From sequence record PZ256263.1: a DNA stretch of 64,000 nucleotides; one strand, written 5' to 3'. This document shows, in pieces, positions 2,627 to 57,940 of this stretch; positions within the stretch are counted from its first letter, which is position 1; each line of letters starts with the position of its first letter. The position numbers and the translations under genes were made by a program. The DNA is from a phage. Under the pieces are notes generated by a model. It was given only the letters and a program-made list of their open reading frames with translations, was not told the origin of the DNA and searched no databases.

Positions 2627-3820
2627 ATGTTTCCAGTAACATTAGAAGATACTGAAGGTAATGTTTTAACGGTCAACCCTCCTTGTTATGGGTTCCTTCA
2701 GCTTCGCAACTATAACGGTGGCGTTGATGAAGATGATGACGAAGATGAATACTTCGACCCTAACATGTATGAGGCAACTCATGGGTGGAATATGCACGTT
2801 CGAGTGTGGCATGAAGAAGCTAACGTTCGTAGTGCTGATGGGGAAGAGTTCCTGTTGAGCCGAGAGATGGATATGTGTAAAATCAAGCATATCTGGAACT
2901 CCGGAACTCACATGAAGATGTTAGGTTTTAGACGTTGGCGTGATGAAAAACCTGTATCCGCAGCTTTAGGTTGGGGTGCTATTGATTACGAAGGCGAGCT
3001 TAAAAACAACATTGAACGTTGGAATGACAAAAACCCTGAACATCGAACCACACCTCGTGCTGTACTGGAAGCTATGGAAGCATTTGTGGACAAAGATCGT
3101 CCCTCCTGTTTACGCTGGCACGATAAAGGTTTTATGGGGGTAGCAACTGAAAATGTTCCTGCTGATCGTTGTCTATTCTATTTGATGTTAGATCGAACCT
3201 TCTATTGTGAAGATGAAGAGAGTCAAGTTGAAACCTTCCTCCACAAATGGTTGGTTGAAGGCTGGACAATCCTTCAGTCTTATGTTTACTCACGAATGGT
3301 TAGCACTTACACTAACCTCTTGGGTGAAACGAAAGCAACTCTGGTTGGTAATGATTGGGATGCTTGTATCTTCCCAGCGTCACTATTTACAGTCGGCATG
3401 GCTGATAAATACGCTGAAGCATTTCAAGTGCCTTGGCGTCAACAGTCGTATAGAGACGGGTGTGGTCACTTCCGTGATGAAGACTTTAAGTGGATTCATT
3501 ATGAGAACGATGAAACAGCAGAATTGCGAGTTAACAACTCAATGTTCTTGCCAGTGATGCACCCCGATCTAGTAAAAGATGGGTCAGAGATACTTAAAGG
3601 TGATAATCTTTTGGTTAACTTTACCCGTCGCGTGTCTAAAAATGAGAGAACAGCTAACAGGCTAATCTACGGCATTCGTGCCGAGGCTAAAGACCTGTTC
3701 AACATCTACAACATTATTCAGCGATTTAGTAGTGGAACTCTGGACCAAAGTTCGGAGTATTCAGTGATTCCATCCTCTGAGTGGGATGGTATTATGAGCG
3801 GATTATTTTTAGGAAAATAA
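2627..3820 (+). CDS. hypothetical protein, first gene of amidoligase/GATase cluster
   Basis: Track ORF 397 aa; tightly packed with downstream genes; no recognisable motif. Confidence 0.6.
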   Translation: MFPVTLEDTEGNVLTVNPPCYGFLQLRNYNGGVDEDDDEDEYFDPNMYEATHGWNMHVRVWHEEANVRSADGEEFLLSREMDMCKIKHIWNSGTHMKMLGFRRWRDEKPVSAALGWGAIDYEGELKNNIERWNDKNPEHRTTPRAVLEAMEAFVDKDRPSCLRWHDKGFMGVATENVPADRCLFYLMLDRTFYCEDEESQVETFLHKWLVEGWTILQSYVYSRMVSTYTNLLGETKATLVGNDWDACIFPASLFTVGMADKYAEAFQVPWRQQSYRDGCGHFRDEDFKWIHYENDETAELRVNNSMFLPVMHPDLVKDGSEILKGDNLLVNFTRRVSKNERTANRLIYGIRAEAKDLFNIYNIIQRFSSGTLDQSSEYSVIPSSEWDGIMSGLFLGK

Positions 3821-3830
3821 AAGGTTAGTT

Positions 3831-4802
3831 ATGTCAATCTCCACAACGATCGTACCTCAGAATCTTCAACAAGATTTAGGGGAACAGAAGTTCTTAGGTC
3901 GTGGGTGCTTCGGTATTCACAACTACATGCAAGGCCAGTGTGTAAATGACATTAATGGTGAAGTTATCACGGAAGAAGGGCGCTATCGTCGCTTCAACCG
4001 CGATATCAACTTGCAACTGGAGATGTTGAATTACTGGACTCACTCTTTTCATGGTCATGTTGCATCCGATATTGAAAAGAACTTGATTGAAACAGCGGAC
4101 ATTATGAACTCTATGTCTTGCTATCGTGATGTATTTACAATCACTTCAGCGAACAGTGTTGCTGTCAATCTTCGTGAGCATCCAGCAGATCAGATCTTCA
4201 CAGGACTTATGCTCTTCCGTAGCATTCTGGAAGGGCAGTATCGTGGAATGGATTTCCTAGCAGAAGGAATTGAAGACAGGGAAGAGTGGCTGAAGCGTAA
4301 ACGCATCGGAATCGCTCTAGTGTTAGCTGGGTTAGGTCGTGACTTCTTCGGTGGGTGGTCTCAACGAGGAATAGCCAATGGGAATAGCGAGAGCACCTCT
4401 ATTGTTATTAATAACAATATGTCAGCAGCAGCATTCCTTCCTTTGGTTGTAGACTCTGATGAATACACGAAACAAGTATGGGTTCAAAATCCCTTCGGTG
4501 TTGGTGACAATGAGAATGGTTATGTTCGTAACCATAACCCAGAGGCCTTACGAAGATTTGCTCGTGCTAAAGATCAAGACCCAACTGAGTATGCAACAAT
4601 GTCAGAGTGGTTAAGACTCTGGTCCATCTGTTATGGTCACAAACGTGAAGCAATAGACGACAAGTTGGGAAACATTACAGTACAAAACTTTACAGCCCGA
4701 CTGATTCAAAGAACTGGAGCAGATTCCGGTCTTACTCTTGAAGAAGTTGGTAACACAATCTCATCTCTCTTTTCTGAACTAGTGGAGTATTACAATGACT
4801 AA
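3831..4802 (+). CDS. hypothetical protein (cluster member)
   Basis: Track ORF 323 aa; overlaps next gene start by 8 nt. Confidence 0.6.
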   Translation: MSISTTIVPQNLQQDLGEQKFLGRGCFGIHNYMQGQCVNDINGEVITEEGRYRRFNRDINLQLEMLNYWTHSFHGHVASDIEKNLIETADIMNSMSCYRDVFTITSANSVAVNLREHPADQIFTGLMLFRSILEGQYRGMDFLAEGIEDREEWLKRKRIGIALVLAGLGRDFFGGWSQRGIANGNSESTSIVINNNMSAAAFLPLVVDSDEYTKQVWVQNPFGVGDNENGYVRNHNPEALRRFARAKDQDPTEYATMSEWLRLWSICYGHKREAIDDKLGNITVQNFTARLIQRTGADSGLTLEEVGNTISSLFSELVEYYND

Positions 4803-55138: not shown

Positions 55139-55171
55139 AGGTTGTCCTCCTTGTTATATGTAGACAAAGAA

Positions 55172-55180
55172 TATACATTA
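55172..55180 (-). promoter_or_regulatory. TAATGTATA motif, candidate promoter downstream of the capsid terminator
   Basis: Minus strand reads gtgtgTAATGTATAtt, about 20 nt upstream of AGGAGG and ATG 55138. Confidence 0.5.
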
Positions 55181-55200
55181 CACACTGGCTTGTATAGGTC

Positions 55201-55233
55201 TTAAAACGAAAAAACCCCGCCCGAAGGCAGGGT
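55201..55233 (-). terminator. rho-independent terminator after the capsid/Ig-like coding region
   Basis: Minus RNA stem acccugcc/ggcggggu with UUCG loop followed by uuuuuucguuuu, a few nt after the Ig-frame stop. Confidence 0.65.
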
Positions 55234-55239
55234 CTAGTT

Positions 55240-55752
55240 TTAAGCAGGTGTTACACCAGTAAAAGTGCATGTTGCATTGATGGATGGGTCAGCTGTCAAA
55301 CTTGCTTGAACAGTAACTTCGCCACTTGCAGCAGCATCTAAGGTTAACGCACCAGCGGCGCTTACTGTACCAGCTTCTGTAGGGGTTACAACAAACGTGT
55401 AATCCGCAGCAGTAGAATTAGTTACAGTAAACATGGTAGTGAAGTTAGTGGAAGAACCACCAGTTTTACCCGTAATTGGACCCTTAGCTACAATAGTAGG
55501 AGCAGGAGCAACAATTTCAGAAATGGTTGCTGTACCAGAAACACCTTCTAAAGTTGCAGTAATGGATACATCAGTGGATTGAGACGCACTCGGAGCAGTA
55601 TACAAACCAGACTGAGTGATAGAACCACCTCCTGTCACTGACCAAGTAAAGCCAGTTGTTTCGGTAGAACCATCACTTTTCTCCGCGCTTGCAGTGAACT
55701 GCCGAGTAGCCCCTGTCTCTAGACTTGCTAAAGACGCAGGGCTAACAGTCAC
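55240..55752 (-). CDS. Ig-like (BIG2-type) domain, probably a -1 frameshift extension of the major capsid protein
   Basis: Track ORF 170 aa begins at GTG with no SD; its frame stays open 30 codons upstream into the capsid gene 3' end; Thr/Ser/Ala-rich with BIG2-like VSPASLASLETGATRQFTA. Confidence 0.6.
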   Translation of the reverse strand: MTVSPASLASLETGATRQFTASAEKSDGSTETTGFTWSVTGGGSITQSGLYTAPSASQSTDVSITATLEGVSGTATISEIVAPAPTIVAKGPITGKTGGSSTNFTTMFTVTNSTAADYTFVVTPTEAGTVSAAGALTLDAAASGEVTVQASLTADPSINATCTFTGVTPA

Positions 55753-55763
55753 ACTGTCTACTG

Positions 55764-56822
55764 TTACGCCGCCACCTTTCCCGCGGCAGTGAACAGAACG
55801 CCGGAAGCGTACGGGTTGCGGTGACGCAGACCAACTTCCATTTCAATCATCCACTTCTCGTAAGAACCGTCTTTAGCCAGTTCAGTGCGTTTCGGAGCAC
55901 GCAGAACCATCTGAGTCCAGTCAGCGCTACGGAAGAAGTAAACTGCATCGGTAGGCATCCAACGGTTAACGATGATTTTGTAGCTCTGGCCCAGCGGGTC
56001 AGTGATGCTGTTAACTTCGTAGATGAACTGCTTGGTGTTCTCAAAGATACGCTTACGTGAACCCTGAGTATTTTCTTGCAGACCAGCGAAGATCTTAGCA
56101 TGAGCCGGGTTAATCATGATGATATCTGCTTCAGAACCAGCGGTATACAGTTGCAGAGTCATATCAAAGATATCAGCTTCGTCGAAACCAATGTTAGTGG
56201 TCGGGTTAGAAGCGTTCTGTGCAACTTTAACAGTTACTGCACCAGTATCCGGGTCAGCAGGACCATTCTTGGTCTTGTCAACAACGCCACCAGCCAGACC
56301 ACCGTGAGCACACAGGAACTGGAATGCACCAGTCTTACGAGCTGCATGGGTGTCATTCAGACCAACAACAGCAGGATCAGTTGCAGAGTTAGTCAGGTAC
56401 TGGTCAGCCAGAACGTCGGTACGAGCCTGACCGGACAGAAGGATTTTCTCGAGGTCACGCTTGATCTCTTTACCTTTCTTCTCCAGCTGATACATCAGTT
56501 CACGACCACGACCGTAGTTAGCGGTGGTGTTAGCAGTATCAGAAACACGAACAACCTTACGCAGAATCTGAGTAACGTTAGATTTGATAACAGTCGGTTT
56601 CATTTCGCCGTCTTCAGCACGAGAGCCTTCGACGTGTGCGTTATTACCGTCAACGCTTGCCAGTGCATCGGTCTGCCAGCTAAAGATAGTCTGGTTAATA
56701 GACTCTTTACCGGTCATAGATACGAACGGGGTATCCTGAGGGGACAGAACAGAAATCCAGTTAGCAAAAGAAAGTTTTTTACCATTCTGGTCATACGATA
56801 CAAATAAAGTTGGATTAGCCAT
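55764..56822 (-). CDS. major capsid protein
   Basis: Track ORF 352 aa; directly downstream of scaffold-like gene; strong terminator after it. Confidence 0.7.
   Translation of the reverse strand: MANPTLFVSYDQNGKKLSFANWISVLSPQDTPFVSMTGKESINQTIFSWQTDALASVDGNNAHVEGSRAEDGEMKPTVIKSNVTQILRKVVRVSDTANTTANYGRGRELMYQLEKKGKEIKRDLEKILLSGQARTDVLADQYLTNSATDPAVVGLNDTHAARKTGAFQFLCAHGGLAGGVVDKTKNGPADPDTGAVTVKVAQNASNPTTNIGFDEADIFDMTLQLYTAGSEADIIMINPAHAKIFAGLQENTQGSRKRIFENTKQFIYEVNSITDPLGQSYKIIVNRWMPTDAVYFFRSADWTQMVLRAPKRTELAKDGSYEKWMIEMEVGLRHRNPYASGVLFTAAGKVAA
55776..55782 (-). other. candidate -1 ribosomal frameshift heptamer G GGA AAG
   Basis: X XXY YYZ heptamer in capsid frame (...GCG GGA AAG GTG GCG GCG TAA), 3 codons before the stop; -1 frame continues GGG AAA GGT GGC ... 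into the Ig-like ORF. Confidence 0.5.
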
Positions 56823-56863
56823 GTTATGTTAGCTCCTATACTATTAATAATTTAATTTGTCGA

Positions 56864-57940
56864 TTAATCTACGAGGAATTTGAATGCGTCTTCGTGACTA
56901 ACGCGACCCTCTGCGAATGCCTTGGCAACCTTAGCGTTGTCGGGCTTATTGGAAGTGCGAGACTTTGCAGCATCAGACTTCACAACCTTGCGTGGAGCAC
57001 CGGGACGTTTAATCTTAGCCATCACCTGTTGCTTACCTTTATCAAATTGGTATGCTTTATGGAGAGCTAGGAAAATAGACGGACGGTTTTCCTTCAATAC
57101 TTCTTCTTCAGTAGCACCTAAGTCAATTGCGTATTGCATTAAGTTTTGATATAAGTTTTCATCCCAATTTGGAATCTCACGTTTCAGAATATTAACACAT
57201 TCAATACTCTTGGCTTGGAAAGCTTCCTGCTCTTTAGCTGCTGCTTCCTGCTTAATACGGACCTGAGCCTGTTCAAGCTGTTGACGACGAGCTGTGTACT
57301 TCTCTAGGAAACGTTTGTTTTCAACATATGCTTGAGGATCTTCTACTGCAAGCTTGTCCCAATCAAAACCGTTATAATCTTCAATTACTCGGTCTGCTTC
57401 TAAAGACGCTAGTTCTAATACATCCTTCAAACCTACTACACGTTCCTCGAATGCTTCCATATGACGCTGAAGAGTTGATTCTCGTTCTGTCATATCAGCA
57501 CCAGTAAGATAGCCATTAGAAAGTTCTTCAATAGTCATCTCACGTCCATCAGGAAGGGTGATAACGGTTTCGTAGTCTACATCAAAGACTTCACCTTCAC
57601 CGTCAGCAGAATCATCTTCATACTCTGCATCGCTTGAATCTTCTTCCTCTTGTTCTTCTGCTTCAGAGGATTCGTCTTCATCTTCTTCGACTTCGCCTTC
57701 CTCTTCACGATCTTCCCAACCATCTTCATCTTCGAACTTAAGCTCATCGCTTTCACCGAGAAGGTCGGTATCAAAGTCGAAATCGTCACCGTCTTTTTCC
57801 GGGAACTCATCGTCAATGTCCACTTCTGGTTCTTGTTCAGATTCTAATCGACCGAGTTCTTCTTTGAAAGAACCTTTCAGGTCATCCAGTTGGAGGAAAG
57901 ATTTAAAATCGTTCGGGTCAATATAATTATCTTGTGGCAT
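56864..57940 (-). CDS. scaffolding protein
   Basis: Track ORF 358 aa; long acidic tracts (EDEDGWEDREEEGEVEEDEDESSEAEEQEEED); between portal and capsid genes. Confidence 0.65.
   Translation of the reverse strand: MPQDNYIDPNDFKSFLQLDDLKGSFKEELGRLESEQEPEVDIDDEFPEKDGDDFDFDTDLLGESDELKFEDEDGWEDREEEGEVEEDEDESSEAEEQEEEDSSDAEYEDDSADGEGEVFDVDYETVITLPDGREMTIEELSNGYLTGADMTERESTLQRHMEAFEERVVGLKDVLELASLEADRVIEDYNGFDWDKLAVEDPQAYVENKRFLEKYTARRQQLEQAQVRIKQEAAAKEQEAFQAKSIECVNILKREIPNWDENLYQNLMQYAIDLGATEEEVLKENRPSIFLALHKAYQFDKGKQQVMAKIKRPGAPRKVVKSDAAKSRTSNKPDNAKVAKAFAEGRVSHEDAFKFLVD

Follow-up and report, generated by a model that had tools for sequence, protein, structure and literature searches.

We found that the major capsid gene of a Kuravirus-like phage ends in a slippery heptamer that links it, in the –1 frame, to a conserved Ig-like extension, and we consider it highly likely that a programmed –1 ribosomal frameshift at this 3′ end produces a minor capsid-Ig fusion. 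The DNA analysed, a stretch of 64,000 nucleotides from sequence record PZ256263.1 (hereafter the window), is from a phiEco32/SU10-like E. coli phage, another isolate of the Kuravirus group: its DNA identity to Kuravirus genomes is 98.3–99.4%, and its gene order (scaffold, capsid, Ig, adaptor, fibre) is that of phiEco32. Slippage at GGGAAAG joining capsid and Ig-like sequences is not new; it has already been published for SU10 (2014), Privateer (2021) and the Kuravirus-like group (2023).

The capsid gene occupies 56822..55764 on the minus strand and encodes, in the zero frame, a 352-aa HK97-fold protein with a computed mass of 38.7 kDa. This protein matches the Pfam family SU10_MCP (PF17236, E = 9e-77) and, over residues 1–350, the structure determined for the SU10 major head protein (7z45, E = 4e-234). 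The sequence upstream of its ATG, AGTATAGGAGCTAACATAAC, contains the Shine-Dalgarno (SD) sequence AGGAG (56833..56837, minus strand), with a predicted anti-SD pairing of –6.5 kcal/mol; this AGGAG would alone serve as the ribosome entry for both products.

At the other end of the gene, the capsid frame reads ...ACT GCC GCG GGA AAG GTG GCG GCG TAA. The heptamer G GGA AAG (55782..55776, minus strand; codons G348 and K349) lies in the X_XXY_YYZ register three codons ahead of the capsid stop TAA (55766..55764), exactly where the first-pass annotation of this DNA had placed it. After a slip, the –1 frame would read GGG AAA and continue for 178 codons (55240..55782, minus strand) to a TAA at 55242..55240, a length that agrees with the earlier claim; upstream of the heptamer, however, this frame is open for 20 codons instead of the 30 first given, as a TGA at 55845..55843 closes it. 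Walking the frames, we obtained a predicted fusion of 527 aa and 55.6 kDa, composed of capsid codons 1–347 followed by the –1 frame from GGG AAA, which is the size that had been predicted beside the 352-aa capsid protein. The predicted junction reads ...TAAGK/GGGVTVD..., and the sequence spanning it is ...LFTAAGKGGGVTVD...; trypsin would be expected to cut the proposed junction peptide AAGK-GGGV at K349.

G_GGA_AAG is listed as highly shift-prone in E. coli (recoding review). By itself the heptamer is not special, because GGGAAAG is not enriched in the window: there are five copies on both strands against the ~8 expected by chance in our own rough estimate. Only the copy at 55782..55776 sits in the slippery register within a long ORF, and of the 44 ORFs of at least 150 aa, the capsid ORF alone has a slippery heptamer among its final 20 codons. 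A –1 ORF of at least 130 codons past the stop follows 4 of these 44 ORFs and is not rare by itself, because adjacent genes overlap.

The –1 ORF had been described as encoding a bacterial Ig-like domain, and we found two. The AlphaFold model of the extension (pLDDT 96.4) consists of two beta-sandwich domains, the first at extension residues ~5–87 (55516..55764, minus strand; its first strand at E6-12) and the second at residues ~92–176 (55249..55503, minus strand). The second domain is covered by a Pfam match to Big_2 (PF02368) at 24.6 bits, above the gathering threshold of 22.8. Foldseek gave the tandem Big domains of LigA as the top match (8gyr, E = 5.6e-11) and also found intimin and invasin. 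The motif SVTVSPAS...GATQQFTA is common to distant homologues. Compared with relatives, the extension has a dN/dS of 0.21–0.33 and is under purifying selection.

To reach the ribosome independently, the extension would need a start of its own. The first-pass annotation had stated that the Ig ORF has no SD and no in-frame start other than a GTG; the first part stands, but four deeper in-frame starts exist (GTG 55638, TTG 55605, ATG 55434 and TTG 55299), all inside the domains and likewise without an SD. The GTG itself (55750..55752, minus strand), at which most database records begin a separate 'Ig domain protein', is preceded by GCGGCGTAACAGTAGACAGT and has no SD; its predicted anti-SD pairing is –1.7 kcal/mol, as compared with –6.5 to –11.4 kcal/mol for the five real gene starts in the window that we used as a reference. 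This GTG is absent in L005, L006, L007 (where GTA or ATA is found) and the Proteus phage Privateer, all of which retain the ORF; the –1 ORF of Privateer begins at the heptamer itself. The conserved motif VTVD[ST][VI]TVSP, which forms strand 1 in the AlphaFold model, lies upstream of GTG 55752, and the first beta-strand of domain 1, VDSVTVS, straddles the annotated GTG. The predicted-fusion peptide GGGVTVDSVTVSPASLASLETGATR begins upstream of GTG 55752. Gene callers are inconsistent, with database records calling Ig starts 12–126 nt past the capsid stop, and in the SU7 record most genes nearby have an annotated RBS, which the Ig gene lacks. By sequence comparison, the Ig ORF thus has no independent conserved translation start, and GTG 55752 is probably just an internal Val codon.

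These observations bear most directly on the reading that the Ig ORF is a separate gene, whose free 170-aa protein, made from GTG 55752, binds the capsid non-covalently or has another role. An in-frame GTG does exist, the records of phiEco32, ShigP1, LAMP and SU7 have this very CDS, and the authors of the SU10 cryo-EM study handled gp10 as its own protein. However, the weak pairing and missing SD at this GTG, its change or loss in relatives, the conserved and structured residues that precede it, and the covalent, in-frame fusion of homologous extensions in other phages all argue against a separate gene, which we regard as very unlikely.

The frameshift reading predicts conservation of the slip site and of the frame linkage, and we found both in relatives. 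In every Gordonclarkvirinae junction sampled with a heptamer-independent anchor, G_GGA_AAG is kept, 3–5 codons before the capsid stop, and is followed by –1 ORFs of 173–455 codons. This anchor set is the non-circular evidence for conservation. In a second table, of synonymous sites in 14 distinct sequences, GCG-GGA-AAG is invariant and nearby Lys and Gly codons vary; because this table was anchored on the heptamer, it shows only the variability of the neighbouring codons. In L005, the linker between heptamer and domain carries an indel of 3 nt, and the frame is kept because of this length. Elsewhere the junction has A_AAA_AAG (L014) or, in Aeromonas phages (L009–L012), the non-canonical GUA_AAG. 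The ORF is retained across genera and has even grown to ~460 aa; in Bas87 and Bas89 the extensions are at least 450 codons long.

An IMG/VR scan with the 14-mer CGTCACCGCAACCC returned mostly random matches, the GLRHRNP motif being encoded at only 12 loci; it yielded the distant loci L027 and L121. The slip site is C_CCA_AAG in L027 and C_CCT_TTC in L121, and the –1 extension of L121 shares 46% identity (E = 6e-33) with an extension that an APT65 capsid paralogue carries in frame. Similarly, phage 7-11 has a capsid paralogue with SU10_MCP and Big_2 in one frame. A search for homologues of the extension returned only stand-alone ORF calls of 110–305 aa and no fused capsid-Ig proteins; because stand-alone calls reflect gene calling, this result is neutral on fusion. 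Taken together, the missing start, the position of the domain boundary, the frame-keeping indel and the in-frame relatives favour the capsid-Ig fusion proposed in the first-pass annotation over a separately initiated Ig protein.

A free Ig protein might also arise by termination at TAA 55766..55764 and reinitiation at the SD-less GTG, possibly alongside some frameshifting. Termination-reinitiation coupling is a known bacterial mechanism, both ORFs would lie on one transcript, and the distance from stop to GTG is just 11 nt. We nevertheless judge it highly improbable, as the GTG is poorly conserved and lost in relatives, the domain boundary lies upstream of it, and reinitiation leaves unexplained both the invariant heptamer and the differing slippery heptamers that relatives carry at the same place.

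RNA polymerase slippage at GGGAAAG, which would yield some mRNAs that have lost or gained one base, is extremely unlikely here: the homopolymer runs (GGG and AAA) are only 3 nt long, to our knowledge transcriptional slippage requires far longer stretches of A or T, and the site is an exact, in-register match to the ribosomal X_XXY_YYZ pattern, even if some phage and bacterial genes do reach a two-product outcome of like kind by this route (recoding review). That the downstream ORF is an unexpressed, decaying remnant beside a coincidental heptamer would fit the lack of heptamer over-representation in the window and the growth of SU10 despite its lost frame linkage, but it is scarcely credible given the dN/dS, the confidently predicted fold, the retention of the ORF across genera and the detection of the Privateer long form in virions.

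To ask what might accompany the heptamer under the frameshift reading, we folded the surrounding RNA and found no convincing stimulatory stem-loop in the 86 nt past the heptamer, in the 71 nt around it or with RNAalifold on eight relatives. In the 86 nt 3′ of the heptamer, the best stem-loop begins ~20 nt downstream (–33.3 kcal/mol, z = –1.9), against the ~5–9 nt of a canonical bacterial –1 signal; in the 71 nt around it, a hairpin forms with the heptamer in its loop (z = –0.4), and the covariation term across the eight relatives is negligible (–0.75). The stem-loop published in the SU10 paper, whose loop contains the heptamer, is no more stable on folding than shuffled sequence. A 6-bp hairpin, AACAGT/ACTGTT, is found 10 nt past the heptamer, but its conservation is equally accounted for by the coding of VTV...TV. 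On direct reading, the 20 upstream nt, GGCGTTCTGTTCACTGCCGC, contain no GGAGG-like element that could act as an upstream SD-like stimulator of the dnaX type. The strong terminator that had been noted after the Ig ORF was located by our terminator scan at 55235..55212 (minus strand): AGACCCTGCC-TTCG-GGCGGGGTTT, a stem of 10 bp, 6 of them G-C, that leads into a T-run. It is kept in relatives, and the SU10 record annotates a terminator there.

Among published systems, the closest are phiEco32 (gp11/gp12), SU10 (gp9/gp10) and YF01 (long isoform of gp8), whose capsid proteins are 99–100% identical to that of the window. The capsid region of this Kuravirus-like group is 98.3–98.8% identical in DNA, and GGGAAAG is again found three codons ahead of the stop, with a matching Ig-like extension and terminator; the extensions of YF01 and Paul are much longer than that of the window, at least 450 codons (2023 paper). 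The 2023 paper describes short and extended capsid isoforms in this group, and the SU10 paper (2014) reported that GGGAAAG slippage fuses CDS9 and CDS10 'as in phage phiEco32'. For phiEco32 itself the evidence is second-hand, Savalia 2008 being the source that the SU10 paper cites for the capsid frameshift. The BASEL paper and the announcement of phage Paul do not mention a frameshift.

Longer capsid species in virions have been reported only for relatives of the window's phage, and the SU10 data conflict. The 2014 study lists a mass spectrometry (MS) entry '9+10' with 50.3% coverage and 22 peptides. This entry could rest on shared capsid peptides alone, because 0.503 × 527 is ~265 aa and 0.781 × 352 is ~275 aa. 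In contrast, extra capsid density was not seen by SU10 cryo-EM and, in the account that the 2023 paper gives of that study, neither was a larger SDS-PAGE band. Unlike in the window, the –1 frame is closed in the deposited SU10 sequence by a single inserted nucleotide, which may be why neither was observed.

Privateer belongs to another family (Grimontviridae) and infects another host, yet its SU10_MCP-type capsid protein is 57% identical to that of the window and GGGAAAG is shared. As in the window, a –1 extension (169 codons, with I-set and Big_2 domains) is followed by a terminator; the Privateer heptamer, however, abuts the stop codon instead of lying three codons before it, and its extension shows no sequence relationship to that of the window (24% identity). 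Its record annotates the long form as a joined CDS, unlike most Kuravirus records. Two capsid bands were seen for Privateer, and its minor capsid protein was detected by MS (2021).

More distant systems resemble the window in part. Hoc of T4 and RB49 displays tandem Ig-like domains on the capsid surface, and RB49 Hoc (3shs) is a weak Foldseek match to the extension (E = 3.6e-4). Hoc, however, is encoded by its own gene and attaches non-covalently to the capsid. The tail chaperone genes G and GT of lambda use the same G_GGA_AAG heptamer, and the slip sites of T7 and T3 gene 10 differ from that of the window, their extension being shorter. Slippery-sequence frameshifting in lambda G/GT is also –1, at a rate of ~3.5% (2023 paper), but it takes place in a tail chaperone gene rather than a capsid gene, and the protein it yields is no Ig-decorated structural protein. 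The first-pass annotation had likened the window to T7 gene 10A/10B, and in the podophages T3 and T7 –1 frameshifting shortly before the capsid gene ends does yield a longer, minor protein within one shell, at ~10% (2023 paper). T3 is the closer analogue, because its gene 10 extension is Ig-like and that of T7 is not (recoding review), and the likeness to the window is a functional analogy only. The general class to which the window's system belongs is that of recoded Ig-like additions (Fraser et al. 2006; Lactobacillus A2, Listeria A118, A500 and PSA), in which a fraction of coat or tail protein copies gains a C-terminal Ig-like domain by –1 or +1 frameshifting, with in-frame counterparts in relatives (recoding review). 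The capsid families and slip sites of the Lactobacillus and Listeria phages differ from those of the window, which adds two tandem Big_2-type domains.

We infer that slippage occurs in the window's phage, and its efficiency likewise. Most ribosomes would continue through GGA AAG GTG GCG GCG to the TAA, giving the 352-aa capsid protein. In a minority, tRNA-Gly (on GGA) and tRNA-Lys (on AAG) would slip by –1 and re-pair to GGG AAA, and these ribosomes would make the 527-aa protein, consisting of capsid residues 1–349, a short Gly linker and two tandem Big_2-type domains. Because the whole capsid fold is retained, the fusion should be built into the prolate head together with the capsid protein, as a minor component that exposes its Ig domains on the surface. 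By our arithmetic, the 3.5–10% rates given for lambda and T3/T7 (2023 paper) would put ~25–70 copies into a head of 715 capsid subunits. By analogy with proposals for other phage Ig-like domains, these domains probably bind weakly to glycans or surfaces. Tentatively, and as a possibility that we rate below even chances, the C-terminus of SU10_MCP-family capsid proteins may be a docking point onto which decoration modules (from one to at least five Ig-like or other domains) are freely swapped, the route of attachment varying by lineage; here the heptamer would determine slippage on its own, without an RNA stimulator, and SU10 would offer a natural knock-out in which to probe the role of the Ig domains.

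Fusions of capsid and Ig-like sequences through –1 frameshifting form an established class, with this exact site published for phiEco32, SU10, YF01 and Privateer, and the value of the window lies in correct annotation. Most GenBank records still show two separate genes; what most Kuravirus records list as a ~170-aa 'Ig domain containing protein' is very probably no separate gene product but the C-terminal portion of a 527-aa minor isoform of the capsid protein. This bears on virion proteomics, on the interpretation of cryo-EM data and on head display in E. coli phages that are therapeutic candidates, where the Ig-like domains could possibly contribute to glycan or mucus adherence.

The source phage is a phiEco32/SU10-like E. 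coli podophage of the genus Kuravirus (subfamily Gordonclarkvirinae) with a prolate C3 head. Positions 55150-56900 of the window are 99.4% identical to Ec3-ASingh, TH06 and phiEc_1, 98.8% identical to phiEco32 and 98.3% identical to SU10. On the minus strand, the gene order is scaffold, major capsid, Ig-like ORF, terminator, adaptor-like gene and fibre. The major capsid ORF (56822..55764) encodes 352 aa with a Pfam SU10_MCP match (PF17236, E = 9e-77), and capsid residues 1-350 match the SU10 major head protein (solved structure 7z45). The strong terminator that the first-pass annotation placed after the Ig-like ORF is present at 55235..55212 on the minus strand as a 10-bp GC-rich stem with a T-run. 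A weak terminator-like hairpin (6 bp, three G-C pairs) also lies within the capsid coding region (55946-55964, minus strand); it is probably a chance match, because the scan gave 5 sites against 2.7 expected. Two GenBank matches stood out: MZ417522.1, 'Mycolicibacterium phage J1' (24,953 bp), is 98% identical to the window's Kuravirus capsid-Ig junction with Mycolicibacterium smegmatis as its assigned host, and is probably mislabelled or contaminated; PP350014.1, 'phage PH444' (114,913 bp), is a 99% match about 38 kb longer than other Kuravirus genomes (~75-78 kb), perhaps because its assembly is chimeric or concatenated.

The capsid gene ends with the codons ACT GCC GCG GGA AAG GTG GCG GCG TAA. 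This puts the GGGAAAG heptamer (55782..55776, minus strand) where it had first been noticed, three codons ahead of the stop and in register as G_GGA_AAG. Past the heptamer, the -1 frame runs without a stop for the 178 codons claimed for it and ends at TAA 55242..55240; upstream, it is closed by TGA 55845..55843, only 20 codons 5' of the heptamer and not the 30 reported in the first-pass annotation. The predicted transframe product is 527 aa (55.6 kDa; the capsid protein is 38.7 kDa) and has the junction ...TAAGK-GGGVTVD..., and the lengths first predicted for the fusion and the 352-aa capsid protein agree with these computed frames. Occurrence of the heptamer is by itself not beyond chance (5 copies in the window, about 8 expected by our own estimate). 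This copy is the only one of the five in a slippery register inside a long ORF, and we found no slippery heptamer in the last 20 codons of any other window ORF of at least 150 aa.

If the Ig-like ORF were a gene of its own, it would start at the annotated GTG (55752), and the evidence says that it is not. As first proposed, this GTG has no Shine-Dalgarno sequence ahead of it: predicted anti-SD pairing is –1.7 kcal/mol, as compared to –6.5 to –11.4 kcal/mol at five real gene starts in the window. Nor is the GTG conserved; the corresponding codon is GTA in two relatives (L006 and L007), ATA in a third (L005) and absent in the Proteus phage Privateer, whose -1 ORF is open only from the heptamer itself onward. 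Ig ORF starts assigned by gene callers and annotators scatter from 12 to 126 nt past the capsid stop, and the SU7 record annotates an RBS on most neighbouring genes and none on the Ig gene. Upstream of the GTG, the -1 frame encodes a conserved peptide, VTVD[ST][VI]TVSP, that lines up with SVTVSPAS...TQQFTA, the start of distant homologues of the Big type, and forms the first beta-strand of the AlphaFold model (extension residues 6-12, pLDDT 96.4; the GTG codon is residue 9). The model bears out the Ig-like nature of the extension, with two tandem Ig-like domains whose top structural match is the tandem Big domains of LigA (E = 5.6e-11), followed by intimin and invasin; RB49 Hoc is a weak match. 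Comparison with relatives gave an extension dN/dS of 0.21-0.33, indicating purifying selection.

To locate junctions in relatives independently of the heptamer, we anchored on the capsid motif GLRHRNP in phiEco32, ShigP1, LAMP, NJ01-like, ECBP2, SU7, EP335, Bas87, Bas89, PE006 and IMG/VR contigs. In all Gordonclarkvirinae junctions sampled, G_GGA_AAG precedes the stop by 3-5 codons and the -1 ORF is 173-455 codons long. Across 14 distinct sequences GCG-GGA-AAG is unchanged, while other nearby Lys and Gly codons vary. The L005 linker carries a 3-nt insertion that keeps the frames linked, and in LAMP the zero-frame tail and stop codon differ with the -1 reading unchanged. Privateer, with a capsid 57% identical, retains GGGAAAG directly abutting the stop, and its -1 extension (I-set and Big_2) is unrelated to that of the window. 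The extensions of Bas89, Bas87 and EP335 (374-461 aa in total, all behind G_GGA_AAG) are modular, with a common first Ig domain, then additional repeats and a C-terminal domain of a distinct kind.

With no usable Ig start, a conserved heptamer and a selected extension, the original frameshift interpretation is supported, and we consider it very likely that -1 ribosomal frameshifting produces the capsid-Ig fusion. In the proposed mechanism, tRNA-Gly and tRNA-Lys would slip in tandem by -1 on G_GGA_AAG, a sequence that a review of frameshift-appended Ig-like domains in phages lists as highly shift-prone in E. coli. We found no convincing stimulatory RNA downstream of the slip site (the best stem-loop begins about 20 nt past it, z = –1.9). 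A hairpin described in the literature, whose loop holds the heptamer, was not significant (z = –0.4), covariation around the slip site among relatives was negligible, and no SD-like element was seen upstream of the heptamer when the sequence was read directly. If the 3.5-10% rates cited for lambda and T3/T7 applied to the 715 capsid subunits of the SU10 head, a head would carry a few dozen fusions.

The feature is already known from relatives. GGGAAAG slippage that joins CDS9 to CDS10 has been described for SU10, with phiEco32 as the precedent. Privateer has two capsid bands, the long form having been detected by MS, a capsid frameshift has been reported for YF01 and the Kuravirus-like group, and frameshift-appended Ig-like domains on phage coat proteins have been reviewed as a general class. 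The initial comparison to T7 gene 10A/10B was right in kind; however, according to the review the T7 extension is not Ig-like and that of T3 is, making T3 the nearer analogue.

SU10 is an exception. Its deposited sequence (KM044272.1, locus ~2650-2665) has, about 30 nt past the heptamer, a 1-nt insertion that none of the relatives shares (GACACTGTCTACTGTT compared to GACAGTGT-GACTGTT), and therefore the -1 frame ends 8 codons beyond the capsid stop and the Ig ORF is moved to the capsid zero frame, behind the stop codon. The insertion may be genuine or may stem from a sequencing error. The Kuravirus-like group paper also remarks on the closed frame, which fits the lack of extra capsid density by cryo-EM and of a larger SDS-PAGE band (attributed by that paper to the SU10 cryo-EM study). 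An earlier SU10 MS entry ('9+10, 55.4 kDa, 50.29% coverage, 22 peptides') could be explained by shared capsid peptides alone, because by our arithmetic the two coverages correspond to similar lengths (0.503 x 527 aa and 0.781 x 352 aa).

Among more distant SU10_MCP genes, we found other slip sites and other routes to a fusion. In L027 (IMGVR_UViG_2758568005_000003), C_CCA_AAG lies 4 codons before the stop (~9716, minus strand) ahead of a 132-aa -1 extension with a He_PIG putative Ig domain. In L121, C_CCT_TTC lies 3 codons before the stop (~3189, minus strand), and its 129-aa -1 extension shares 46% identity (E = 6e-33) with the in-frame C-terminal module of the fourth (428 aa) of four tandem capsid paralogues in Aeromonas phage APT65 (3977-5260). 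In L014 (IMGVR_UViG_3300033688_000038), the capsid end GTA AAA AAG GCG TAA has a dnaX-type A_AAA_AAG 1 codon before the stop (~3921); the Pro- and Lys-rich -1 extension runs 41 codons beyond the stop and had no Pfam match. This locus also has a second capsid paralogue. Four IMG/VR Aeromonas-type C3 phages (L009-L012, capsid stop ~3922) share the ending CTG/TTG AAG GTA AAG (GCG or CCC) TAA. None of the four has an X_XXY_YYZ heptamer at the capsid end. Their -1 frames are free of stops over 20 codons on the upstream side and 89-170 on the downstream side; in L009, two Big_2 domains are encoded there, with no SD-bearing start codon ahead of the conserved GVTVSPAT strand. These sequences suggest a non-canonical A_AAG-type -1 slip. 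Salmonella phage 7-11 has a plain 312-aa capsid copy (1982-2920), a terminator, and then a 585-aa paralogue (3001-4758) in which SU10_MCP and Big_2 are fused in frame; gene duplication appears to take the place of frameshifting. GAP52 likewise has two capsid paralogues. In most database records the Ig ORF is still wrongly entered as a gene of its own. Taken together, the in-frame fusions of APT65 and 7-11 and the varied slip sites indicate that covalent capsid-decoration fusion is the conserved outcome, and that the route to it is variable.
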